Source: Naegleria gruberi
Taxonomy: Eukaryota
Assembly (NCBI GenBank): GCA_000004985.1
Contig: GG738928.1
Direction: 5' to 3' (one strand)
Length of the DNA stretch: 64,000 bases
Part shown: positions 2,537 through 64,000 of the stretch, piece by piece
How the letters are laid out: every line of letters begins with the position of its first letter
Numbering within the stretch: position 1 is the first letter of the stretch
The notes under the pieces: generated by a model
What the model was told of the DNA's origin: nothing
The model's input: the letters and a program-made list of their open reading frames with translations, nothing else
The model's database searches: none
Translations under genes and position numbers: made by a program

Positions 2537-3392
2537 CAGATTATTTCCATGAACTTTGAAAGTTGAAAAGAGATCTCCCATAAAATTTAATGATATTGCT
2601 AGGTTATCAGATGAAGAATGTAAGAACTGTTTAGATGTTGTTTCAAAAGGCTACTAGATTAACAATACTACCAAATTGAGGAGAACAAGATCATAGTTAA
2701 TGCCCAACAGGAGTAATTTGCTACTGATAATATGATGTTTAAAAGATGATGAAAGGATTCCTTCGGATTGTCTAAAATACAACAAAATCGCCAGGCTGTT
2801 TGCATAACAATATTTTCTTCAACATGGTGCCGAGTAGATGTGTAGGCTATTTTTTTTCTTAATAATTAAGAAAAAAATTATTTCTGGTTGGTTTAAAATA
2901 TAAAAATGTAACGGTAAATTTTGGAGCGTTCAACACTACAAATCAATCATCTTACTAACTTGAACTTCAATCCATTCAAGGTTCATCAATATCAATCTCT
3001 TTGATTTTCCTCAATGAACAAGGAATATCAAATTTGCGCCAAGAAACAAAACCCTTTACTGTGTCTTTCCCTTCTTCTCTAGCGTTGAACCTGCAGAACT
3101 CGCGTCCAAAAATAGCGCCCTACGAAAAATCGAAGAACAACACGAAAAGAATCAAGTGCAATGAAACGTTGAGCGGCAAATGACGATAATCCATTTAATA
3201 GTAGAAAAAAAGAAAACAACATCAAAGCCTCTCTTTCCTCATCGTTACGTACACACAAACGTTTGCGCTCGCAGCGAAATCAAATTCTCTCTTCTCAATC
3301 ATTTTTTTTTTACAGTGCTACACAACCTTCTACAAGTTCTAGGCTTGTTCCAAACAATAATTTATTAAAACCTTCTTCCAACACACAACAAA

Positions 3393-15035: not shown

Positions 15036-15108
15036 TGCCGACACCAGGGATCGAACCAGGGACCTTAAGATCTTCAGTCTTACGCTCTCCCAACTGAGCT
15101 ATGTCGGC
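15036..15108 (-). tRNA. tRNA-Phe (GAA)
   Basis: Minus strand reads GCCGACATAGCTCAGTTGGGAGAGCGTAAGACTGAAGATCTTAAGGTCCCTGGTTCGATCCCTGGTGTCGGCA, a canonical cloverleaf. Anticodon loop CTGAAGA (GAA), discriminator A, then a T-run terminator (AATTTT). Confidence 0.95.
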
Positions 15109-16838: not shown

Positions 16839-19284
16839 ATGGCAAATCCAGCCAAATTAAAAAAAATGCGAACTTTATTATCTTTCGTAATCTTGCTCTA
16901 TTTATTCACTATTGTGGTCACAGGTGAGGTGAAATCCATTCAGCAACAACAGCAACGAGAATCCTCATTCACTTTCTTCCTGGATTCTTATCAAGGAACG
17001 GAAACAAATGTTTCATGTCTTGATGAATCCATTCCATGTGTTTACATGTCTCAAGTTATAGACTCGGCACGATCAATATTACAGCTGGGAAACAATTCCT
17101 CAACATTATCTTTAGAGATGAATATTCTAGTAAGAGGAGAAGTAATTGACTGCGATATTCTAATTGACTTTACTAATTTTACATCAAATTTTAAATTGAA
17201 TATTGTTGGGTGGGATGATGACGACTATTTCCTATCATCATGTTATCCTTTTCTACATGTAAATAGTAAAATAGATGAGTTGACCATTGTAAAGGGGTAT
17301 TCAATTCGAATAATAATTGTATTTAATTATGAAATGAAGAATTTATCCATTTCTAAATGTAAAGGAAGTCTTACTATTCAAACTTCAATTGAAAATGCAA
17401 ACATCTTGGAAAGCGAATTTAATTCATTAGAAATTACAAGTCAGATTCAAAATCTTGTTATACTAAACGATTCGATTACTTACTTACAAGGAAATTTGAA
17501 AGCTAAACAAGTGAAAATGGAAACTATTAATATTTCCAATTTTAAATTAGTGGAAATTAAGAATTGTCATTGGAGTTCATTCTCAGGGACAAGTTTATTT
17601 CATGGCGGAGAGAAATTCTCAATTCTTTCAAGTATTATTACAGGCCCAATGATGTTTGAAGTTGTGAGTGTTTTGGAAATAATCAACGTCACTGTTAGCA
17701 GGGTTAATTTTGAGCCAGAGAATGGAAATTTTTTTGGAATAGCCACAGTTGACCAAGTGACAATTGAAAGATGTAATTTTGTGGATAATACTATTGGTGG
17801 AAGTATGATTTCAGTACAACGTTGTAAAAATTTACTTATTGTTAATTGTAAACATTCCAATAATTTATCCAAGTTTATTACAATCCTGTCATCTAGTAGG
17901 AATCGAATTACAATTCAAGATTCTGAATTTTTCAATAATCAGGCAAGTGATGCCTTAATTGTTTTTGATTCCAATTATGTTGTAGATAGCACTATATTAC
18001 TATTAGATAATTGTAATTTTGTGAATAATATTGGAGGATTGACTGGATCCGCTCTGAAAATAACTAAAGCTAATGTTCTCATTTCGAGTTGTAACTTTTC
18101 ATTTAATAAGGCAGGTTATGGAGGAGCTGTCTATATGATAAGTCAACTTTCTACTGTTATCGAATATTCAAATTTCACTAACAATGAAGCAACTCAATCA
18201 GGCGGTGCAATTTATGTGGGAGATGTTTCAAATCTACGACAATGGGAAACAGTAGAAACAATTTGTGATTCTAATAACGCATTGGAAGCTGGAGGATGTT
18301 TATATATGAAAGGTAAATCAAAGATTGATGTGGTGTATAATTTTGCTGGAATCAATAAGGCAATTTGTTATGGTAACAATATTGCTACAGAACTCACAAA
18401 AAAGAAGTTTGAATTTAGACTCAATGGATTCGAATATCAATTGATTACCAATCAGAGTATTCAAATTTATCCAGGAGAATCCCTGGATTTGAGAATTATA
18501 TTATCAGATAGATACAATCAGAAAAGTGTAATGCTTCCTGAAAATCAAATGTCTATGAAAATCAATTCTAATAATTTAGTTTTACAAACACAAGGTTTTA
18601 CAAGCGGAAATGATAGCATACTTTCGAATAATATTCAAATACTTCTTAAAGAATATCAATATGCCAACTTCCATGAAGAAACAACTTTTTCATTCATATT
18701 GAAAGATATCGAACATTCGATTAGAATGAAATTGGTTGATTGTCCACCAGGATATACCATTTCTAAAAATTATGGAAATGTCAAATGTGAATACATTCCA
18801 ATAGAAATCATTCTTCCAGCTGCTATTGTTGGTGCTATTTCCTTAATTATTATATTTGTGACTGTAATTTTGGTGGGAATTTATATTGTTAAAAAACTCA
18901 AAAAATTGAGAAGACAAGAAAGAGCAGAAAAGGAAATTCAAAAGAAATTTATTGATAATTCTTTTGTTTTCAATAATGGCAGCAATGGTTCAGATTTGAG
19001 TGTTCCACTGGTTGAAAAATCTTTCAACTCTGAGGATTCTATTCGATACACTATTCCAATTGCAGAAATTGATATATTATCTAAAATTGGAGAAGGATCT
19101 AACGGATTAGTATATAAAGCAAAGTGGAACAGGACAGATGTTGCCATAAAACAATTGAAAACTTTAGGAGAAGAGGATGATGAAGAGTTTGAAAGAGAAG
19201 CTCTTTTAATGAGCTCATTAAGACATCCGTCAGTTGTTAGTTGCTACGGAGTTTCAATAACCAACGACAGCAAGTATATGGTTG
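16839..19284 (+). CDS. Receptor-type protein kinase, exon 1 of 5 (signal peptide, beta-helix ectodomain, TM, kinase subdomains I-V)
   Basis: Signal peptide LLSFVILLYLFTIVVTG. Repeated PbH1-like units (GGSMISVQ, GGAVYMIS, SGGAIYVGD, AGGCLYMKG). TM helix ILPAAIVGAISLIIIFVTVILVGIYIV. Kinase start IGEGSNGLVYKAKW…VAIKQLK. Ends YMVV|GTAAGT. Confidence 0.8.
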
Positions 19285-19329
19285 TAAGTACTTACTTTTG
19301 AGAAATAATTTGAATTTATTGTATATTAG

Positions 19330-19487
19330 GTGGAATACTTGGAAAATGGAAGTCTTGAGAAGGCACTCTACAAGTCTAAAATTGGAAAAGAAAAATTGTC
19401 ATTCGAAACTAAATTGAATATTCTCTTGGATGTTGGAAAGGGTATGACCTATCTCCATTCGATAAGACCTAACAAGATTATTCATAG
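19330..19487 (+). CDS. Receptor-type protein kinase, exon 2 of 5
   Basis: Acceptor TATATTAG. Encodes EYLENGSLEKALYKSKIGKEKLSFETKLNILLDVGKGMTYLHSIRPNKIIH(R). Donor AG|GTAAGT, phase 2. Confidence 0.75.
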
Positions 19488-19541
19488 GTAAGTTTAGTTT
19501 CTATTTACTTTGGAGAGTTAACAATTTTCAGAGATTTGAAA

Positions 19542-19661
19542 CCGGGAAATATTTTGCTTACCAAAAATTTAAATGCCAAAGTGAGTGACTTTGGGCTCAG
19601 TAAGATGGTTTCGAATAATACAGCCACAATGACCACAAATGTTGGAACCTTATTATACATT
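19542..19661 (+). CDS. Receptor-type protein kinase, exon 3 of 5 (catalytic loop to activation loop)
   Basis: Acceptor TTTTCAG. Encodes (R)DLKPGNILLTKNLNAKVSDFGLSKMVSNNTATMTTNVGTLLYI (HRDLKPGN and DFG motifs). Donor T|GTAAGT. Confidence 0.75.
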
Positions 19662-19713
19662 GTAAGTTTTTCACAATATTCCATTTAACTAATTTAGCAA
19701 TTTCCATCTTTAG

Positions 19714-19719
19714 GCACCA
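19714..19719 (+). CDS. Receptor-type protein kinase, exon 4 of 5: 6-nt microexon GCACCA (Ala-Pro of the APE motif)
   Basis: Flanked by CTTTAG and GTAAGT. Omitting it deletes the invariant AP of Y-x-APE; including it gives GTLLYIAPELLSNYHKGQTTKLDVYSFG. Confidence 0.6.
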
Positions 19720-19768
19720 GTAAGTTTTAACAACAAATTAATCATTGATTTATTATTTAATATTTTAG

Positions 19769-20161
19769 GAATTATTATCTAATTATCACAAAGGACAAAC
19801 AACAAAATTGGATGTTTATTCATTTGGACTAATCATGTGGGAAGTTCTATTTGAAATGGTTCCATTTTCCAATGAACTATCTGATGCAACAACACCATTC
19901 TCTATTTTATTACAAGTAACCAATGGATTAAGACCTTCTCTTTCTGTTATGGGAGAACATTTCGAATATATTCAAGAATGGATTGAAGATCACTTTACAA
20001 TGAGAGAAATTCAAAAAATTGGAAAGCAAACCATTGAAAAATGTTTAAAAGATTATATTGAAGTGATGAAACTCTGTTGGTATAAGGAACCAAGCAATAG
20101 ACCAGAATTTATTGAAATTACAGAAAGTTTAGAATTAATTATTGAACAAATAAGGAAATGA
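19769..20161 (+). CDS. Receptor-type protein kinase, exon 5 of 5 (subdomains VIII-XI)
   Basis: Acceptor TATTTTAG. Encodes ELLSNYHKGQTTKLDVYSFGLIMWEVL…CWYKEPSNRPEF…IIEQIRK. Stop TGA at 20159-20161. Confidence 0.8.
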   Translation, partial: ELLSNYHKGQTTKLDVYSFGLIMWEVLFEMVPFSNELSDATTPFSILLQVTNGLRPSLSVMGEHFEYIQEWIEDHFTMREIQKIGKQTIEKCLKDYIEVMKLCWYKEPSNRPEFIEITESLELIIEQIRK

Positions 20162-20560: not shown

Positions 20561-21130
20561 ATGAACCGTATTTCTGAACCTAATCATACATTACATAATA
20601 CATGGACCTTATGGTATCACAGTCCTAGAAGTAAAATTAATGAACAAAATTATAAGGCTTTTTTCACCAAAGTTAAAGCTTTTACTACAATAGAGGATTT
20701 TTGGCGATTATTTAATAATGTTCGTTCACCATCATGTTTACCAATCGGAACAACATATTATTTAATGAAGGATGCTATTAAACCAGAGTGGGAAGATCCA
20801 AATTGTATCAATGGAGGAGAAATGGTTTTTAGTTTTGCTAAAAAATCAAGACAAGAAGCTGATCAATGGTGGTTGTTCTCTTGTATTATGTGTATCGGAG
20901 AAAACTTTATTGGATTGGGAGATCATATTTGTGGATGTACAGTTGCAAACAGAAAGAGTATGATTAGAATTAGTTTTTGGCTTGATACTGATGAGGATGA
21001 ATACGTCAAACGTTTGGAAGACCAATGCAAAGGTGCATTTGACATTCTCAGTGCTGGCTCAACCTTGTTCAAATTCGATTTTCGATCATTTAGAGCCAAT
21101 TTGTCCAAGATATCGAAAGCTGATGATTAA
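20561..21130 (+). CDS. eIF4E-family mRNA cap-binding protein (paralog 1)
   Basis: WTLWYH…EDFWRLFNNV…YYLMKDAIKPEWEDPNCINGGEMVF matches the eIF4E core (W-x-x-W, EDFW, G-I-x-P-x-WED, GG-x-W). Single exon. Confidence 0.85.
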   Translation: MNRISEPNHTLHNTWTLWYHSPRSKINEQNYKAFFTKVKAFTTIEDFWRLFNNVRSPSCLPIGTTYYLMKDAIKPEWEDPNCINGGEMVFSFAKKSRQEADQWWLFSCIMCIGENFIGLGDHICGCTVANRKSMIRISFWLDTDEDEYVKRLEDQCKGAFDILSAGSTLFKFDFRSFRANLSKISKADD

Positions 21131-21615
21131 TAAATATTGGCAAATCATCATGGACTATTAAGAATTCAATTTTTATTACTTTCAGAATATCTTACAAGGT
21201 TTTTATGTATTCAACAATATCTCACTTGACAATCACTGTTGTTGTAAGGTTGTGTGAACAATAAGAGACCTGTTTAAAGATTTTTAATAGACATGAGCAT
21301 GAGTAAATGAAGGAACCACCTAAAAGGGAATATTCAAATTAATAACAATACATCTCAATTCCAATTCCAATCACATCTTCTTAATTGTTTTGTAAAATTA
21401 TTTTTCAAAAACATCAAATGATGTAATAATTTTTATTAGGCTTGAAGACAAACTCGAAAATGTAAAATTAAAAATAATTATAAAAAAAAAATAAAAGAGT
21501 AGTAATCTAGACGTACCTCGCACTCTTTTACCTTCATCATCAAGCCTTGTTTTATTTAATAATAATAATACATTATCATCAAGCAACAACAATATTACTA
21601 GAATAGTACGATACT

Positions 21616-22071
21616 ATGAGCAGCGAAAAGAAGGTAATTGATCAAGAAGAAATTGAAAATGACACTGAAGCCGAAGTTAATGAAGAAGTAGCAGAAAGGC
21701 CTATTTTAGAAAATACTTGGACATTATGGTATCATAACCCTCAAGCTAAACTTAACGAGCAAAACTATTCTCACTTTTACAATGAAGTCTATACATTCTC
21801 GGATGTTGAAACATTTTGGAGTGTTTTTAATCACATTAGAGGACCTAGTGAAATATCGACCGGTACAACTTACTTTTTATTGAAGGAAGGTATAAAACCA
21901 GAATGGGAAGATCCAAAATGTATTGGTGGTGGTGAATGGGTTTATAGTTTCCCTAAAAAGCACGTTCCAGCTGATCAATACTGGTTAGATTTAGTGATGT
22001 TTTGTGTAGGAGAGTCATTTACTTATTCGGATAATTTGCTTGGATGTTGTGTTGCCAACAGAAAGAATCAA
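21616..22071 (+). CDS. eIF4E-family cap-binding protein (paralog 2), exon 1 of 2
   Basis: WTLWYHNPQAKLNEQNY…ETFWSVFNHI…FLLKEGIKPEWEDPKCIGGGEWVYSF. Donor CAA|GTATGT. Confidence 0.85.
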
Positions 22072-22115
22072 GTATGTAATATTTAAATAATTAATTTATA
22101 ATAACTTTAATATAG

Positions 22116-22286
22116 ATTCGTATCAATTTGTGGGTAGATACATTGGATGAAACAATAGCAAAGAGATTTGGAGAGCAATTCAAATTTGAAGCCTTAAAAA
22201 TAGGAGCAAATACAAATATCAAAATAGACTTTAAATCTTTCAAAGATCAATTGGACGGTAAAAAGACAGTTTTACAAGTAGTGTAA
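22116..22286 (+). CDS. eIF4E-family cap-binding protein (paralog 2), exon 2 of 2
   Basis: 44-nt intron (22072-22115) ending TATAG. Exon encodes IRINLWVDTLDETIAKRFGEQFKF…, parallel to MIRISFWLDTDEDEYVKRLEDQ in paralog 1. Stop TAA at 22284-22286. Confidence 0.75.
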   Translation: MRINLWVDTLDETIAKRFGEQFKFEALKIGANTNIKIDFKSFKDQLDGKKTVLQVV

Positions 22287-22414
22287 ATTCCTTTTTAAAA
22301 TGAATTTCAAAACGAACTCGACTGAAAAGGAGCTCATTATCGTTCGATTCAGAAAATCTTAAATAAATAACAAAAAAACAATATAAAATTTATCTAAATT
22401 TAGGTAAATAATAT

Positions 22415-23893
22415 TTATATAGCCTCAATTAAATGATAATTCTTCTTTCCTAATCTCAATACAGCAATTGATCCATTACCTGCCACAAGATCAGCTTCTG
22501 TCATGACATATTTTGGATCTATTTGTCTCTTGTAATTAATGTAAAAACCTCCACTCTTGATCAATTTACCCAATTCAGATTTGGATGGTCCAAGCTTGAG
22601 AGCTAAAGCAATATCTATAATTGGCTTAGATAAAAGATCTTCCTTTGGTACTTGTCCACCAACAGAATCCTTCATTAGTGATGTAATATCTTTCTTTGAT
22701 AAGGTCTTTAAAATTTCAATTGCTTCCTCACTGCTAGCTCCAAATAATAAATTTGTACATTTTTGTACCTTTTCCAATTGTTCCTTTCCGTGAATTTGTG
22801 TTGTTAATTCTTCAGCAAGTCTTTGTTGAGCAATTCTCTTTTCTGGTTGCTGATTGTGTTCTTGTAAGATTTGGTCAATATCTTCCAAGCTAACAAATGT
22901 TAACATTTTCAATAATTTCTCCACATCAGCATCTTGAACTCTGAGGAAATATTGATAAAAATCAAAGACAGAAGTCATTTCAGGATTGAGCCAGACAGCA
23001 TTACCCATAGATTTACCAAATTTAACTCCATCAGCAGTTGTGAGTAAAGGAATTGTCATACCACTGCATACTGATTGACAACTTTCTGGCATGGCTGTTT
23101 GCTTTTTCTTTATGAATTCCAATCCACTTGTAATATTTCCCCATTGATCAGATCCTCCAATTTGAAGTCTTACGTTATTTGAGTTCAATAAATGGAAAAA
23201 ATCATAACTTTGGAAAAGTGAGTAGGAAAATTCAGTAAAAGTCATACCACCATTATCAGCATCAGCATTTTCAACTCTAGATTTAACACTGTCCAATCTT
23301 AACATGTTAGCAATTTGGAAATATTTTCCAACATTTCTCAATAAATCAATCATTTTCATTTCTCCCAACCAATCAGCATTATTGACAACTGTGACATTGT
23401 TCTTAGAGGAGAAGAAAGAATTCATTTCTCTCTTCAATCCTTCAATATTATTATTAATTGTTGATTCATCCAAGAGAGGTCTCTCTGTTTTTCTGCCACT
23501 TGGATCACCAATTCTACCAGTTGCACCACCAACAAGACAATAAATATGAACATTCTTTGGATTAAAAGCCAATTGGAATCTCTTCAAAGTTTGAAGAACA
23601 AGCAAATTGCCAACATGAAGCCCCGAAGCTGTAGGATCAAAACCAGCATAAATACCAATAGACTTGGCCAATTCACTACCACTGTTCATTTCTTGCATTA
23701 AATTATCAAATCCCGAAGTAGCATCATTATAAATTCCTCTCTTTTTTAAATCGGAAATAAATTCATTATTATTTGATGATGAAGTTTGATTAAATCTCCT
23801 TTGAATATTGTTTCCTCCGATTAAATACTTTCTGTTCTTTAAAAAAAGGCCCGAGTCAACAAGGCTTGTTTGACGAAGAAGGCTTCGTTGCAT
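22415..23893 (-). CDS. Tyrosyl-tRNA synthetase, mitochondrial (bacterial-type class I TyrRS)
   Basis: N-terminal presequence-like MQRSLLRQTSLV. HIGH-type motif GLHVGNL, KMSKS-type KFGKS, C-terminal S4-like domain. 492-aa single exon. Confidence 0.85.
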   Translation of the reverse strand: MQRSLLRQTSLVDSGLFLKNRKYLIGGNNIQRRFNQTSSSNNNEFISDLKKRGIYNDATSGFDNLMQEMNSGSELAKSIGIYAGFDPTASGLHVGNLLVLQTLKRFQLAFNPKNVHIYCLVGGATGRIGDPSGRKTERPLLDESTINNNIEGLKREMNSFFSSKNNVTVVNNADWLGEMKMIDLLRNVGKYFQIANMLRLDSVKSRVENADADNGGMTFTEFSYSLFQSYDFFHLLNSNNVRLQIGGSDQWGNITSGLEFIKKKQTAMPESCQSVCSGMTIPLLTTADGVKFGKSMGNAVWLNPEMTSVFDFYQYFLRVQDADVEKLLKMLTFVSLEDIDQILQEHNQQPEKRIAQQRLAEELTTQIHGKEQLEKVQKCTNLLFGASSEEAIEILKTLSKKDITSLMKDSVGGQVPKEDLLSKPIIDIALALKLGPSKSELGKLIKSGGFYINYKRQIDPKYVMTEADLVAGNGSIAVLRLGKKNYHLIEAI

Positions 23894-24074
23894 TTTTTTT
23901 CAAAAATTCAATCAAAATTAATTATCCTAAATTGGATATTTTAAATAATTATTTTCATATGTTTTTAACTATTAAATATTAAGCTAATTTTATTAAATTA
24001 TGAGTATTGAATTAATTCTCGCAGTCAACTTGATATTTAATGTTGTAAAAAATATTTAAAAACATTTAAAAAAA

Positions 24075-35648: not shown

Positions 35649-36725
35649 TTAGTGTCTTGGACCGTAGTCTCTACTGTCTCTAGGACGAGATTCAAACTCA
35701 TTACGAGATGATCCTTGATTGTTGTTCTTATTTGAATCATTGGTTGTTCTTCCATATGAAGGTCTATCAGAATAATTTCCATAAGATTGATGTCTGTCAT
35801 AATATGCTCCTCCTCTATTGTTGTTGTTATTGTAAGAACGAGGTGGTGGAATTTCAATTTGATTTGAATTATCAGACACTCTACCATAAGAAGATGTTGG
35901 ACCATAATAGGATGAAGAATTATTTCTTGAATCAACTCTTCCATAGTGAGGTGAATTATTTTGTGGAGGAGGGTAAGGTTGATATCTATTATTATTATTG
36001 TTGGAATAGTGATAATCACGAGTTGATCGTGGATTTCTGTATGGTGATGATGGCCTAGAAGATGACGATCCATATCGATCTCGATCATCTCGGAATGGAG
36101 GAGAAGGTGGAGAATAATTATCAGAGTGACGATGATGATCTGATCCATTGTTTCCTCCACGATGATAGTCATTATTATAGGATGATGATCTGCTACTATC
36201 ACGATCATTATCATAAGATCTTCTACCAGACATTGAACCTCCTCCTCTTGGTTCTCTTCCACCTCTTGGTCCTCGTTTCTTTAGCATCTTTATATAATCA
36301 TCTCTCTTCATACCACCATCTTTTCCTCTTCCGTATTGTCTCCCTTCTACGAAACCTGTATCGATGGCAATTTTAAGAGCACGATTATTTAATTTACATC
36401 CTCTACAATATTTAACGCATTCCTCTGCATCGGATCTGTGATAGAACTCAACAAAACAAAATCCACAAGGTGTTAACGTATTTCTATTTAAACCCATTAC
36501 AACTCGCTTAACTTCTCCACATTTTTCAAACAATTCGTATATTTGCTCCTCCTTGGTATAAAAACTTAGATTTTCTACATAGATTGTTGAAGATTGAGAA
36601 AGTGCCCTCTCGAAATCCTCTTCATTTCCGCCCTCATTTACATAGTGTTTTAATAAATATTCATATTCTCTCTTGCTTCCGTGAAAAAATTTTAAAGGAT
36701 GATGAGCTTCGAGAAGATGAGCCAT
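35649..36725 (-). CDS. Nuclear cap-binding protein subunit 2 (CBP20/NCBP2) with long RG/RS/Tyr-rich C-terminal tail
   Basis: [61 protein letters not shown]…[20 protein letters not shown] is the CBP20 RRM almost motif for motif. The track start at 36788 is a GTG; the real start is ATG at 36725 (AAAAAAAATGGCT; MAHLLEA…). Confidence 0.85.
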
Positions 36726-37056
36726 TTTTTTTGTATCTAAATTTTTATTCTTCCCCTTCAACATTAATTCATCGAGCCTTCTTTGCACAAAGGAATATCA
36801 ACACCACAAACATAGCTTAGCATAGCAGACAAAGAGGCTTTGACAGAGTTGTGGATTCTTTGCCATCACCCTTGACTAGACATGGTACAAGAAAACATTT
36901 TGCACAACATTGGAATGCCCTTTGAAATGAATTATCATAACATACACACCATTAATACCTTACTGCCCTCTTATTGTGACAGGTCCATTTATCTATTGTT
37001 TATTGTCACAGCACAGTATGAGGACACAGTAATGAATTAACATCTTCTTTTAAAAA

Positions 37057-40000
37057 ATGCCTCAAGATAGAAGGGCCAACCTCTTGCTCTTGATTATCAC
37101 AGTTATTTTGTGTTTCGCAGCAACGGCCGACTTGTCTAAGGGAATTTTAACGGAGGCAGAATATCAAACCTACATCTCCAATTCATGCCCTTCTAAGCCT
37201 CTCTCCACTGATGCTTGGTACTCTGAGGAAAGTAACTTGATAAATATTATTCTTGCGGGTGATAATTCAAAGCTTCCTCTGATCTACCCTCAGGAGTATT
37301 CGACGAATAACACTATTGTAAGGGATGATATTCTCAATACAACTACAACAAGCAACTCTTCACCAGCAACAACAATATTACAATCAGGAAACAATACAAC
37401 AGTGAACAACTCCTCCTCAACAAGCAACACAACTATTACCATTATTCAAGGGTGGGATGATCTTCTCAAAGTTCTTAATGAGACTTTGAAACCCAACGCT
37501 ACCCTCGCTGATAACTCAACAAGTGGAAATAATAGTTCTCTAGGATCGAATGGTTCAATCATTTTTAATTCCACCAATTCACAAACAACTACTAATGGAA
37601 ATGTACCTCTGTTGAATACTACCCTTAACTCAACCACAAACTCTAGCCCTTCTGTTGGAACAAATACAACAAATACTCAGTTATCCTCCAATACAACCCC
37701 TAGTGTTATTTCGAATAGTACTGGTACAGCTTCGACAATCAATTCCACTAATGCTAACCTGAACACAGTGAATGGAACAAGCGGAAGTACAGAAATTGGT
37801 TCGACCTATGGATCCAACAGCACTTCTGGTCAAGGTAATAGCACAACCACGAACACGCCATTTGGTTCTAACTCTAATTCCATAGGATCAACAATAGTAA
37901 CTAACGGAACTGTTGCAGCCGGTGCAATTTCTAGTTCAACAGTAACCTCAAACGGTGGGTATGTTGGCTCCAATACCTCTGGTTCAATAAGCACAACTTC
38001 AACTGGATCTAATAGCCAAGGATTAGGATCTAGCTCCTCCACAAATGTCTCTGCTAATAATACTGCAACTGTTAGTGGACCTTCAAGTGGATTTAATTCT
38101 ACTTCTGGGGCAACTTCTGGGGCAAACAACGGTTCCGTTACAACAAGTACTGGAACAAATGGTCAATCAACTACTGGAACAAGCTTAGGATCGACCTCCT
38201 CTAATGGTTCAAACAGTGGTTCAACTAATGGAACAAATACAGGTTCCGTTTCCACAAGTACTGGAACAAGTGGTTCCTCTTCAAGTGTTTCAACAAACTC
38301 AGGATCAACAAGCTCTTCTAACTCTGGTTCAACTAATGGAGCAAACACCGGATCAATTGGCGTTTCTAACTCTGGATCTTCTATTGGAACAAATACTGGT
38401 TCTGGTTCAACAATCACTGGAACCAGTTCAGGTTCTTCAACTAGTTCTAACACCAATACAGGAAACAATAATGTCTCCAATTCTGGATTAAATGGTCAAG
38501 GAACAAATTCTACTTCAAGCTCCTCAGCTACTAACATTTCAGGTTCAAATAATACTGGATCAAGTAATCAAGGAAGTAATTCAGGATCCAGTTCTACTGG
38601 AACAAGTAGCACTTCAAGTACTGGATTAAATGGTAGCGTTTCTTCAGGTGGTTCTAACACTGGAACAAATGGAGTATCAAATAATGGATCAGCAACTGGC
38701 ATTGCTCCCAATGTCTCTGGAACAAGTGGTAGTTCCTCTTCAAGTGTTTCAAACACTGTCTCCTCAAACTCAGGTTCGAGTGCTAATAATACTTCAACTG
38801 TTAGTGGACCTTCAGCAGGATCTAATTCTACTTCTGGAACAACTTCTGGAGCAAACAGCGGTTCCGTTACAACAAGTACTGGAACAAACGGTCAATCAAA
38901 TTCTGGAGCTAGCTCAGGATCTACCTCCTCTGGCTCTTCAAGTGGTTCGAACAGTGGTCCTGGCTCTAATACTGGTACAAGTGATACTAATACAGGGTCA
39001 ACAAGCTCTTCTAACTCTGGTTCTTCGAGTGGAGCAAGTACTGGTTCAGGTTCTTCAACAAATTCTAACACTAATCCAGGAAACAACAATGTCTCCAATT
39101 CTGGATTAAATGGTCAAGGAACAAATTCTGCTTTAGGCTCCTCAGCTACTAACATTTCAGGAGCAAGTAATACTGGACAAGTTCTACATCTCAAGCTCTG
39201 GATTAAGTAATTCAGGATCCAGTTCTACTGGATCAAGTAGCACTTCAAGTACTGGATTAAATGGTGGCTCTTCTACAGGTGGTTCTAACACTGGAACAAA
39301 TGGAGTATCAAATAATGGATCAGCAACTGGCATTGCTCCCAATGTCTCTGGAACAAGTGGTAGTTCCTCTTCAAGTGTTTCAAACACTGTCTCCGCAAGC
39401 TCAGGTTCGAGTGCTAATACTTCAACTGTTAGTGGACCTTCAGCAGGATCTAATTCTACTTCTGGAACAACTTCTGGAGCAAACAGCGGTTCCGTTACAA
39501 CAAGTACTGGAACAAACGGTCAATCAAATTCTGGAGCTAGCTCAGGATCTACCTCCTTTGGCTCTTCAAGTGGTTCTACCAATGCTGGACCCAATTCTAG
39601 TAGTAATTCAACGGTCAGTGGTGGTTCTTCAAATGCATCTGGTTTTACAAGTACTGGACCGAATACTCAAGGTGGTTCATTATCTGACTCCTCAAATACT
39701 GGAACTGCTAGCACTCCAAGTGCTGGATTAAGTAGTGGATCTTCTTCAGGTGGTTCTAACACTGGGACAAATGGAGCATCAAATAATGTTTCTGGAACAA
39801 ATGGTGGTTCATCTTCTAGTGTAACAAACAGTGGTTCTGGTTCTAATACTGGTATTAATACTGGAACAATTGGCGTTTCTAACTCTGGATCTTCTATAGG
39901 AACTGGGGTAAATACTGGTGCTGGAGCAAGTTCAGGATCTTCAACAAATTCTAACATCAATACAGGAACCAATAGTGTCTCCAATTCTGGATTAAATGGT

Positions 40001-42713
40001 CAAGGAACAAATTCTACTTCAAGCTCCTCAGCTACTAACATTTCAGGTTCAAGTTATACTGGTACAGGAGGTACTACCTCTTCAAGTTCTGGATTAAGTG
40101 GTGGTTCTTCGTCAGGTAATGCTATTACTGGATCAACAACTGGCAACACTGCAAATGTCTATGGAGGAAATGGTGTTATCAATACAGGATCAACCAGCAC
40201 TGGAGCAAATACTGGTTTACCAAGCACAGGACCTTCAACTACTCAATCACTGGAACAATTGGTGTTATCAATTCAGGATCAACGAGCTCTTCTAACTCTG
40301 GATCTTCGCCTGGAGCAAATACTGGTTCTGGTACAACAATCACTGGAACTAGTTCAGGATCTTCAACAAATTCTAACACTAATACAGGAACCAATAGTGT
40401 ATCAGGTTCAAATACTAGTGGCTCTATCACAAGCCCATCCACTGTATCCACTAGCTCTTCTAACATTGGAACAAATACTGGTTCCGGTTCGAGTAATACT
40501 GGAACTTCTAGTAATGGATCAATTGTTTCAAATAGTGGCTCCACAAGTACTGAAACTACTAGCACCCCAAATACTGGATTAAATGGTGGTTTTTATTCAG
40601 GTGGTTCCAACACTGGAACAAATGGAGTATCAAATAATGAATCAACAACTGGTATCACTACAAATGTTTCTGGAACAATTGGGGGTTCATCTTCTAGTGT
40701 ATCAAATAGTGGTTCTGGTTCTAATACTGGTATTAATACTGGAACAATTGGCGCTTCTAACTCTGGATCTTCTATTGGAACAAATAATGGTTCTGGTTCA
40801 ACAATCACTGGAACCAGTTCAGGATCTTCAACTAGTTCTAACATCAATACAGGAAACAATAATGTCTCCAATTCTGGATTAAATGGTCAAGGAACAAATT
40901 CTACTTCAAGCTCTTCAGCTACTAACATTTCGGGTTCAAGTAATACTGGTACAGGAGGTACTACCTCTTCAAGTTCTGGATTAAGTGGTGGTTCTTCTTC
41001 TGGTGGTTCTAACACTGGAACAACTGAATCAACAATTGGCAACACTGCAAATGTCTATGGAGGAAATGGTGTTATCAATACAGGATCAACCATTTCTGGA
41101 ACAAACACTGGTTTACCAAGCACAGGAGCATCAACTACTTCAACAGGCAATCCTGGTTCTGGTTCAGCAAACACTGGAACCACTTCAAACGGTTCTACCA
41201 ATACAGGTACCACAATTAATAGTGGTTCAGGATCTACCAATACAGGTACCACAATTAATAGTGGTTCAGTATCTGGTTCTTCAACAGGTTTAAACAACTC
41301 TGGTTCTTCAACAAATAACAGTAGCTCAACAATTTCTACCACAACAAACCCAGCCACTTCCAGTGGTTCAGGATCTTCAACAAATTCTAACACTAATACA
41401 GGAAACAATAATGTCTCCAATTCTGGATCAAATGGTCAAGGAACAAATTCTGCTTCAAGCTCTTCAGCTACTAACATTTCAGGTTCAAATACTAGTGGTT
41501 CAAGCTCATCTTCTGGTTCTTCTAACACTGGAGCAAATACTGGATTAACAAGCACAGGACCATCCAATACTCCAACCAATAATGGGGGTTCCTCTAATTC
41601 TGGGTCAAGCTCTAGTGGAACTAGTGGTTCAACTTCAGTTATTTTTGGAGCAACAAGCTCCTCCAATCCTAACTCTGGCTCTAATACTGGTACAAGTGGT
41701 GATACCAATACAGGATCAACGAGCTCTTCTAACTCTGGATCTTCGACTGGGGCAAATACTGCTTCAAGCAATGCTGGATCAGGTACAAACAATGGAAACA
41801 ATGGATCAACAAGTTCAAATAGCAATTCAACAAGTTATAGTGCTCTTGATACTCTTCGTAAAGAAATAGAACGATTAGTTACAGATATTATTGGGCGACC
41901 TGATCCAAACCTGCCAACACCAGATCTTCAAAAAGGAATAGACACACTTAAAAATGACATTCTTGGTGTCAAACCTGCCTCACCGACTACTACTAGTCTA
42001 CCACCAACTCAACAAACTCTAACAGCTCAATTAACAACTCACCAACATCAAACAATAATGTTACAAAACCTTCTAACAATACAAACACAACCACAACCCT
42101 TAACGCCTCAAAAAGCACAACCCCAACAAGGAACTCAACCACTACTTCGACTAGTGTATCAACCACAACAACCGATAGTACTTCCAATGCTATTCAGTCA
42201 AGTAATAGAAACAACAATGCTGGAAGTCCAATCAGATGTAAACAGAAATGTCCTGTTAGGTATGAACAGAAAGTGTGTATAACCAAAAGAAAAACCAGTA
42301 GTTCTTCTTCTGTTGTTGCATCCAATATTGTTGCAGTCATGGCAGAGAACATTGCCACCATTAAGAATGGATCACCTGATGGGTTAATAATTGGTTTATC
42401 TGTTGCAGGAGGTGTGTTAGCAATTCTGTGTTGTACAGGATCGTCTATCATTGGATGTGTTCTGTACGCTAAGAGAAAGAGAAATAATTTCTGGAATCTT
42501 TATGAAGATAAAAATGTCAGAATGCTTATGGAGGGTCACATTGATGAAAGTGCATATGCAGATGTTGAATTAGAGGATGATGAAGAATTTGATCCACTAG
42601 AAGCAAAATCTTCTTACTCTGGCTCTAATGAAGATGATTTCAAGTTTGACGAAGAATCAGAAGAATCTTCAGAATCAGATAAACAAGAAGAAGAAATTGA
42701 ATTTGAATATTAA
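37057..42713 (+). CDS. Mucin-like type-I membrane glycoprotein (signal peptide, ~1700-aa Ser/Thr/Gly/Asn repeat region, TM helix, acidic cytoplasmic tail); reading frame broken at least 3 times
   Basis: Signal peptide MPQDRRANLLLLIITVILCFAATA. The S/T/G/N-rich frame runs 37057-39210, continues +1 from about 39190, shifts again near 40250 and again near 41995. The last segment encodes …CKQKCPVRYEQKVCITKRK, TM helix LIIGLSVAGGVLAILCCTGSSIIGCVLYA and an acidic tail ending EEEIEFEY with stop at 42711-42713. Each break looks like a 1-nt indel relative to neighbouring repeat copies. Confidence 0.6.
38040..41560 (+). repeat. Long imperfect tandem repeats (period about 640-730 bp, plus shorter internal periodicity) inside the mucin-like gene
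   Basis: The block …AATACTTCAACTGTTAGTGGACCTTCAGCAGGATCTAATTCTACTTCTGGAACAACTTCTGGAGCAAACAGCGGTTCCGTTACAACAAGTACTGGAACAAACGGTCAATCAAATTCTGGAGC recurs near 38050, 38780 and 39420. GTCTCCAATTCTGGATTAAATGGTCAAGGAACAAATTCT recurs near 38470, 39090, 39970, 40860 and 41410. Confidence 0.8.
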
Positions 42714-61902: not shown

Positions 61903-63135
61903 ATGGCTAAAAAGAAGAATAATAATAAGAATAAGAATTCAGCCTCTTCGGCAACAACACCAGTTTCACCAGTGAGTGAAGTCAGTGAGGATAATAGTAT
62001 TGAAGAAACTGTTACATCATCAACAACAATGGAAGAGGAACAAACAGTATCAACAACAACTCAAGAATCTACAATTGATGAAGCCTCCACAATAACTTCT
62101 ACCACTGAACAACAAGAAGAAGAAGAAGCCTCTGATAAAATTCAACAACCTGAAGAAGTAAATTCATCATCTACAACAACAGCCATTGTTACTGAAGGAA
62201 TACCAACAACTAACACTGTTGAAACATCTGATTCTATTACTACTACTAATACTAATACTACTACTATTGATAATAACATTCCAACAAGTAGTACAACAAC
62301 AACAACAATTGAAGAAGAAGAAGAAAAAACAAATCAAAAAAGTGAAGAAGAAATTATAACAGAAGAAATTGAAAAATTAAAAGAAGATTTAACTGATCGT
62401 GTTAAAGTAGTAAGAGAAGAATTAGAATTACAATATGAAATTGAAATTAAAAAATTACAAATTGATCATCAAGAATCTTTAAAAAAACAATTAGATTTAT
62501 ATGAAAATAAGATTAATTCACTTGTTGAAACTCATAAATATGAAATTGAACAATTAAATGCTCAATTAAAACAAAAAGATGAAGAAAATTTAAATGAATT
62601 GGAAAATATTAAATTATTAGAAATTAAATTACAAGATCAATTAAATGAAAATAATTCTAAAGATTTAATAATTAATAATTTAAATAATAATATTGAAAAT
62701 TTAAATAATAATATTAATAATTTAAAAAATGAAATTGAAATTAAAAAATCTGAATTAAAAGAAAAAAATGAAAATTCAAATGAATTAAATGAAACTATTA
62801 AAAAACATTTAGAAAAAATTCAAAATTTAGAAAGAGAAGAATTAAATTCATTACAAAAAATTAATCATTTAAATCAACAATTAAAAACAACAAGTGAAAA
62901 GAATTCTGAATATGAAAATAGAATTTTACAATTAGAAGAAGAATTAAAATCACAAAAAGAAAATGAAACAATTATTTTACATAAATATTATCATCATGCT
63001 TTATTAGCTGTAAAATTAACTTTATCAAATATTAATTTTTCAGTTCCAGATTTGTTAGATGATTGTATTAAAGAACAAGTTAAAGAAGAAGATTTAGATT
63101 CTTGGATTACAAAGAAATTAGAATTACAAAATTAA
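61903..63135 (+). CDS. Coiled-coil protein (acidic/Thr-rich N-terminus, ~250-aa heptad region)
   Basis: Single 410-aa ORF with ATG at 61903. EEIEKLKEDLTDRVKVVREELELQYEIEIKKLQ… continuous heptads. No enzymatic motif. Confidence 0.55.
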   Translation: MAKKKNNNKNKNSASSATTPVSPVSEVSEDNSIEETVTSSTTMEEEQTVSTTTQESTIDEASTITSTTEQQEEEEASDKIQQPEEVNSSSTTTAIVTEGIPTTNTVETSDSITTTNTNTTTIDNNIPTSSTTTTTIEEEEEKTNQKSEEEIITEEIEKLKEDLTDRVKVVREELELQYEIEIKKLQIDHQESLKKQLDLYENKINSLVETHKYEIEQLNAQLKQKDEENLNELENIKLLEIKLQDQLNENNSKDLIINNLNNNIENLNNNINNLKNEIEIKKSELKEKNENSNELNETIKKHLEKIQNLEREELNSLQKINHLNQQLKTTSEKNSEYENRILQLEEELKSQKENETIILHKYYHHALLAVKLTLSNINFSVPDLLDDCIKEQVKEEDLDSWITKKLELQN

Positions 63136-63269
63136 ATATTTTAATATTTATAATTATAAATAAAAAAAAACAATTTAAATTATTAAATCATAATGTGTTT
63201 TAAATTGTTGTTGATGAAGAAGAATATTTCAAAAGTTTAAATTATTATTAAATAAATTATTAATCAATT

Positions 63270-64000
63270 TTATCGTTCATTTATTTGATCATCAGATTCA
63301 TAACCAGATAATTGATTTAATTGATTATTATTATTTGGAAGTATAATTTCATTTAAAATTGTATTTAATTGATATTTTAATTCATCTTTAAATTGTTGTT
63401 GATTTATAATATTTGAATTATTATTTAAATTATTATTTAAATTATTTAATTTAAATTCAATTAAATGATTTAAAATATTTTTTAAAAAAGCATGATCATT
63501 TCCATGTAAAGAAATAAATAAATTATTAAATAATTCTAATAAATTATTATTTAAATCAATATTACTATATATATTAATTAAAGTACGTAACCATAAATCT
63601 AATTCATCTTGAGATGAACAACTCCATTCACTAATTTCACCATTTATAGTTTTAATTTCAAATCTAAATTTTAAATCATTATTTTCATTTTGTAATCTTT
63701 TTATACTTGTTATACTATTTATATCTATTATATTATATTTGGAATTTGAATCATTTCTATAATATAATTTACTTCTTTTAATTTTAACTTTGGTTTTTTG
63801 ATATCCAATTCCATTTTTACGTTTTTTAAATAAATTCCTTTTAAATCATATTTAATTATATTTTCATTTTTTTTAAAATTATTAAAATTATTATTATTTA
63901 AATTATTACTATTTATATTATTATTATTTATATTAATAATTGTATTTCTTGTTTGTTGTAAATTATTATCACTAATAGTTTGTCTATGAGTATTAAATTC
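63270..64000 (-). CDS. PH-domain protein, 3' part (gene continues 5' beyond window end); absent from the ORF track; apparent 1-nt frameshift at an A6/T6 homopolymer near 63825-63830
   Basis: Minus-strand frame from about 63846 to stop 63270-63272 reads …FKKRKNGIGYQKTKVKIKRSKLYYRNDSN…EISEWSCSSQDELDLWLRTL… (PH-domain pattern with C-terminal helix Trp). It has no ATG, TTG or GTG, so it is not in the track. A different frame is open from 64000 down to 63745 (…NENIIKYDLKGIYLKN…). Adding one A in the run gives a continuous GIYLKKRKNGIGYQ…. Confidence 0.5.

Follow-up and report, generated by a model that had tools for sequence, protein, structure and literature searches.

The activation segment of a protein kinase ends in the APE motif, whose Glu is anchored to the C-lobe, and the locus considered here raises the question of how the first two residues of that motif come to be encoded. 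NAEGRDRAFT_75740 (EFC36588.1 / XP_002669332.1) specifies a TKL-type, membrane-spanning, receptor-like kinase of Naegleria gruberi, and a preliminary description of the 64-kb stretch of DNA under study (hereafter the window) assigned the Ala-Pro of its APE motif to an exon of only six nucleotides, proposing in addition that skipping of this exon would act as a splicing switch for kinase activity. Reading of the window sequence leads us to regard the hexamer GCACCA at positions 19714–19719 as very probably a genuine 6-nt coding exon, the fourth of five, which would supply the APE Ala-Pro between two short canonical introns. The proposed switch for kinase activity, on the other hand, finds no support and looks unlikely.

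We built the gene model by hand from the list of open reading frames and the splice signals, arriving at five exons and four introns (Table 1). The details of the preliminary description held up exactly against the window sequence: the position and identity of GCACCA, the flanking CTTTAG (19708–19713) and GTAAGT (19720–19725), the 52- and 49-nt introns and the exon numbering are all as claimed, and so, by sequence, are the end of exon 3 (...GTLLYI, 19661) and the start of exon 5 (ELLSNYHKG, 19769). All four introns (46, 44, 52 and 49 nt) begin with GTAAGT and end with TAG or CAG. The spliced product of 1043 amino acids comprises a signal peptide, a large repeat-rich ectodomain, one transmembrane (TM) helix and a complete kinase domain, with the Pfam kinase domains beginning at residue 745 and matched over their full length (PF07714, 179.7 bits; PF00069, 173.6 bits); exon 1 aligns end to end with the model of a paralogue. 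The catalytic motifs GEGSNG (GxGxxG), VAIK, HRDLKPGN, DFG and APE are all found in the spliced model, which is the motif complement predicted for a catalytically competent TKL-like kinase. An ATG at 16839 lies nine codons 5' of the annotated start at 16866 (MANPAKLKKM-RTLL...).

Table 1. Predicted exons and introns of the hand-built NAEGRDRAFT_75740 model, with the corresponding intron of the deposited model and the tandem microexons of the paralogue contig L008 (window coordinates, except for L008, where they are those of the contig).
Feature	Coordinates	Strand	Description
Exon 1	16839..19283	+	Signal peptide, beta-helix/PMP-like ectodomain, TM helix, juxtamembrane, N-lobe to ...SKYMV; continuous ORF, GTAAGT donor at end
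Intron 1	19284..19329	+	46 nt, GTAAGT...TAG, phase 0; position common to L008
Exon 2	19330..19487	+	VEYLENG...NKIIH-R; translation agrees with homologues
Intron 2	19488..19531	+	44 nt, GTAAGT...CAG, within HRD Arg codon; splicing restores HRDLKPGN
Exon 3	19532..19661	+	Catalytic loop, DFG, activation loop to GTLLYI
Intron 3	19662-19713	+	52 nt, phase 0, GTAAGTTTT...TTTAACTAAT...CCATCTTTAG; 5' flank of microexon; same position in N. lovaniensis L004 (FYM/APE)
Exon 4, microexon GCACCA	19714-19719	+	6 nt, predicted to encode APE Ala-Pro; GCACCT in strain contigs L001/L002 and paralogue L008
Intron 4	19720-19768	+	49 nt, phase 0, GTAAGTTTT...ATATTTTAG; 3' flank of microexon; same position in L003 (YIAP/EIL) and L008 (49 nt)
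Exon 5	19769..20161	+	APE Glu, C-lobe, stop TGA
Single intron implied by EFC36588.1	19662..19768	+	Introns 3 and 4 plus microexon, 107–108 nt; ends inferred from protein sequence
Tandem microexons of L008	ATATT 3275-3279, GCACCT 3320-3325		5 nt + 6 nt, 40-nt intron between, giving GTLL-YI-AP-ELLSNHH

The hexamer has AG directly on its 5' side and GT directly on its 3' side (CTTTAG/GCACCA/GTAAGT, 19708–19725). The donors of introns 3 and 4 both read GTAAGTTTT, and the acceptor of intron 3 is formed by a CCATCTTT tract and TAG; within the two introns, branch-like TTTAAC/CTAAT and TTTAAT motifs are legible alongside T-rich tracts, giving each intron a YTRAY-like element whose use as branch site we infer. 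The splice sites of the microexon are thus full consensus and of the same strength as the neighboring ones (GTAAGTTTT donors, pyrimidine-rich acceptors), and inspection of the sequence revealed no suboptimal splice sites around it. We enumerated every GT..AG solution that joins exon 3 to the same exon 5 through a single intron or a pair, each no shorter than 25 nt, while remaining in frame and free of stops. Four solutions exist, and GT..Y.APE arises from the proposed microexon splicing alone, which bears out the claim that no other route leads to Y-x-APE. With the microexon, the junction reads GTLLYIAPELL, and without it GTLLYIELL; with a 6-nt exon and a merged intron of ~108 nt, skipping preserves the frame and deletes Ala-Pro, just as the preliminary description had it. 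An acceptor at 19697, which would create a 22-nt exon, was rejected together with other GT/AG combinations, these either breaking the frame or losing conserved residues.

Public annotation tells a different story. The deposited model EFC36588.1 (962 aa) reads ...NVGTLLYIELLSNYHKG... across the activation segment and has no Ala-Pro because introns 3 and 4 and the microexon are merged into one ~108-nt intron; were this model right, GCACCA and its signals would be a coincidence or a decayed relic. The model is at least in frame and passes Pfam kinase thresholds, yet several lines of evidence make this reading very improbable. The minimal pattern AGGCNCCNGT (AG-GCNCCN-GT) occurs once in the 64-kb window, both strands counted, where shuffled sequences lead one to expect 0.20 occurrences; this corresponds to a chance expectation of ~2e-4 per 108-nt stretch on one strand, lower still with the full GTAAGT, and the fuller pattern TAGGCNCCNGTAAGT had 0 occurrences in 100 shuffles. 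Restoring Ala-Pro to the kinase domain raises its score from 174.1 to 184.8 bits against PF07714 (+10.7) and from 160.7 to 177.7 bits against PF00069 (+17.0). The spacing of the motif speaks the same way: among 408 activation segments in 377 retrieved homologues, the deposited EFC36588.1 model is the sole instance of Y-x-E, whereas Y-x-x-x-E is present in 350. The hexamer is, moreover, kept as Ala-Pro codons in a second strain and in a diverged paralogue while the introns around it diverge (described below), and the same deposited model carries a further, doubtful in-frame intron in exon 1. We therefore read the merged intron, which swallows exon 4, as an annotation error and not as an isoform. 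A pair of ~50-nt introns is also more in keeping with the gene than a single ~108-nt intron because its other introns are 46 and 44 nt long and share the same GTAAGT donor.

The doubtful intron of exon 1 is a 210-nt, in-frame and stop-free segment (window 17130–17339, plus strand, GTAAGA...GAAG, 70 aa) that EFC36588.1 removes; it is probably spurious, since the residues taken out have aligned counterparts in the paralogue's coding sequence (NILVRGEVIDCD... versus KIMMKGSYECGQ...). EFC36588.1 (XP_002669332.1) hence misstates the activation segment of the kinase, and probably exon 1 too, and the practical outcome of the analysis is a corrected gene model for NAEGRDRAFT_75740. A division of Naegleria kinases into active enzymes and pseudokinases that relied on the deposited model would be misleading.

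The same count of activation segments qualifies the earlier description of Ala-Pro as invariant. That the Y-x-x-x-E spacing is nearly universal stands, but the dipeptide itself is AP in 266 of those 350 segments and is sometimes AN, SN, PN or SP in this amoeboid kinase family. Several of its kinases have ANE, SNE, PNE, GNE or ARE in place of APE, the family model P0296 reads FYMAELIG, one residue short, and several gene calls end directly after GTLxY[IM]; on account of these variants, the short P0296 and the early-ending calls, more unannotated or mis-spliced tiny exons may exist in this segment family-wide.

Comparison with related sequences drew on paralogues and homologues, the set containing no ortholog. 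A second strain is represented by an ENA contig and a Logan contig (L001/L002), two assemblies of the metagenome run ERR1078381, which are 98.8% and 98.0% identical to the window, respectively; both read GCACCT, a synonymous change in the Pro codon. Across the aligned exon 3–exon 5 stretch, all differences within exons are synonymous, and the others fall within introns. In a homologue from N. lovaniensis (L004), an intron sits exactly at FYM/APE and none follows AP, and in a metagenomic homologue (L003), an intron sits exactly at YIAP/EIL and none precedes AP; each of the two intron positions that flank the microexon therefore exists singly in relatives, the upstream one in the former and the downstream one in the latter.

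The most informative comparison is with the paralogue NAEGRDRAFT_75112, whose exon structure we took from its counterpart on L008, a 98%-identical metagenomic strain contig (ENA ERZ929261 contig k127_300871) from the same sample. Positions 3230–3374 of L008 read ...ACT CTA TTA T / gtaagt, 45 nt / ATATT / gtaagt, 40 nt / GCACCT / gtaagt, 49 nt / GAG TTA CTT..., so that two microexons stand in tandem. The 5-nt exon is needed for the frame because the donor before it splits the Tyr codon, and the consensus is obtained solely from the version with both microexons. Exons of the window and of L008 align well, and their introns cannot be aligned beyond the splice signals. Like NAEGRDRAFT_75740, the paralogue has an ectodomain, a TM helix and a TKL kinase, the two models being 40% identical over their full length and 82% identical over the kinase fragment, and both have a 6-nt Ala-Pro exon and, after it, an intron of 49 nt in the same place; NAEGRDRAFT_75112 differs in having an additional 45-nt intron within the Tyr codon, which gives rise to the second microexon ATATT, and in lacking the intron in the HRD codon. 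Its deposited protein, EFC37179.1, is 98% identical without gaps to the 5-exon L008 model and reads GTLLYIAPELL. One and the same annotation project thus took up the microexons in 75112 and missed the one in 75740; gene finders evidently treat such tiny exons inconsistently, even between paralogues.

At least one diverged paralogue thus retains the microexon, as a second probably does, and the arrangement with a 6-nt Ala-Pro exon is, as judged from these alignments, a family trait. A third paralogue, EFC43316.1 (NAEGRDRAFT_68759, P0377), is annotated as YIKKAPELL (...GTLLYIKKAPELL...). This reading points to an exon of 12 nt or, alternatively, to an acceptor placed 6 nt upstream of the true one, with AAAAAG read as Lys-Lys, and the way in which the C-terminus of the model runs into hydrophobic junk suggests a missed downstream intron. 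A metagenome scan with the 20-mer ATGACCACAAATGTTGGAAC returned only four unrelated matches, three of them bacterial-looking and one an unrelated kinase with an uninterrupted APE.

With so many related kinases in the genome, one might suspect a decaying pseudogene copy of a large family, in which neither splicing pattern would matter. Beyond the size of the family, what could be said for this is that neither N. lovaniensis nor a second relative has a syntenic counterpart of the locus beside eIF4E. In the window, the neighboring eIF4E ORF (20561–21127) matches N. gruberi EFC36589.1 exactly, and it forms part of a trio of genes that also lie side by side in L005, L006 and L007, contigs from N. 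lovaniensis and the other relative, though with one eIF4E inverted; a syntenic kinase ortholog beside eIF4E is absent from both relatives, and the kinase gene is on that ground not syntenic. The pseudogene reading nonetheless strains belief: the 1043-codon frame is intact with all catalytic motifs present, the strain differences in the aligned stretch are synonymous within exons, and all four introns carry consensus signals. The three genes in question occupy window positions 20561–23900, where two eIF4E paralogues in tandem are followed by a tyrosyl-tRNA synthetase.

How, then, might an exon of six nucleotides be spliced? Splice sites 6 nt apart cannot both be engaged at once, and for this reason introns 3 and 4 are most likely removed consecutively under intron definition. 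Each would behave as a short U2-type intron with its own GTAAGT donor, branch-like motif, pyrimidine tract and YAG acceptor, and either order of removal would leave a normal substrate. The mature mRNA would then read GTLLY-I-AP-E-LL, so closing the activation segment in a kinase domain that is complete in all other respects. Loss of Ala-Pro would, given the anchoring of the APE Glu to the C-lobe, displace the P+1 loop with respect to this fixed point.

The switch proposal starts from such a loss. As a regulated cassette, the microexon would give an active kinase when included and, when skipped, an in-frame but catalytically impaired receptor without Ala-Pro, and such a switch might act in the amoeba-to-flagellate transition or under stress. 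Skipping would indeed preserve the frame, the outer donor and acceptor are also of consensus type, making excision of ~108 nt chemically possible, and transcriptome data from N. gruberi do include cases of exon skipping (PMC6142364). We nevertheless hold regulated inclusion to be distinctly improbable. The microexon's own sites match the outer ones in strength (donors GTAAGTTTT, acceptor CCATCTTTAG), whereas the regulated microexons of animals are typically weaker-sited (PMC8831610), and a diverged paralogue has conserved the exon. Of the 65 species in a published survey, all except one showed more intron retention than exon skipping (PMC6142364). The only "skipped" sequence on record, finally, comes from computational gene prediction and not from RNA. 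Inclusion of the microexon is probably constitutive, a view for which we draw on splice-site strength, conservation and work in plants (PMC8831610). Skipping at a low, noise-like level is possible because it would preserve the frame, and regulation of such skipping is speculation. The further thought that skipping yields a signaling-dead receptor, and hence an on/off switch for a kinase in a unicellular excavate that evolved independently of animal neuronal microexon programs, likewise has little to commend it.

The splicing outcomes predict distinct junction sequences: CCTTATTATACATTGCACCAGAATTATTATCTAATT for inclusion (core ACATTGCACCAGAATTA; inclusion-specific ACATTGCACCAGAATT), CCTTATTATACATTGAATTATTATCTAATT for skipping (halves CCTTATTATACATT and GAATTATTATCTAATT), and ACATTGCACCAGTAAGT and CTTTAGGCACCAGAATT for the half-spliced intermediates. 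Searches of protein collections with the kinase domain, the ectodomain and a 121-aa piece centered on the microexon returned no spliced transcript-derived fragments of this gene, and exact look-ups of both full-length models, with and without the microexon, gave no match. RNA-seq reads from N. gruberi are public under PRJEB23822 (PMC6142364).

Misannotated ultra-short coding microexons are a class already documented in plants (PMC8831610), here encountered in a heterolobosean. Microexons of fewer than 8 nt are described as little studied in many organisms (PMC8042270), and a literature search for Naegleria microexons found nothing relevant. Like the Naegleria exon, the misannotated plant microexons (≤15 nt; PMC8831610) are internal exons of a few nucleotides between canonical introns that encode part of a conserved domain motif, are conserved among homologues and were missed by automatic annotation; their flanking introns are reported to be removed consecutively, the upstream one tending to lag, and in Chlamydomonas, Pkinase and PK_Tyr_Ser-Thr are the top microexon-encoded domains (Yu et al, 2022, PMC8831610). 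The Naegleria exon differs from those of plants in belonging to a heterolobosean amoeboflagellate, in its very short flanking introns (49–52 nt) and in that one paralogue carries adjacent 5- and 6-nt microexons.

The switch idea is modeled on the alternative neuronal microexons of animals (SRRM4- or PRP-40-dependent), which resemble the Naegleria exon in being tiny and in-frame and in contributing few residues at functional protein surfaces. The animal exons, however, are regulated and have long introns and dedicated enhancers, whereas the Naegleria introns are ~50 nt and their sites consensus, and the animal exons act through exon skipping, which was not found for the Naegleria exon. The survey of 65 species, to which new RNA-seq from N. 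gruberi contributed, found skipping at its highest level in animals, then in plants and a few scattered eukaryotes (PMC6142364).

N. gruberi thus appears to use exons of 5 and 6 nt between introns of ~45–50 nt, the tandem 5-nt and 6-nt exons of the 75112 paralogue being the most unusual detail. Naegleria could serve to study an intron-defining spliceosome at splice sites only 5–6 nt apart, and more tiny exons could come to light in a systematic screen of its kinases for motif residues that the models lack.

Other features of the locus and its surroundings merit brief mention. For the ectodomain (16839–18900), all homologues found, except the gene's own deposited model, carry Chlam_PMP and/or Beta_helix Pfam domains, and those few with a name come from archaea or bacteria; from the domains and origin of these homologues, the protein would seem to join a prokaryotic-type beta-helix ectodomain to a eukaryotic TKL kinase. 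A tRNA-Phe (GAA) gene lies at window positions 15036–15108 on the minus strand, between the upstream neighbor of the kinase and an AT-rich spacer. GC content averages ~31% over the window, rises to 38–41% at 36001–42000 and falls to 18% at 62001–64000.
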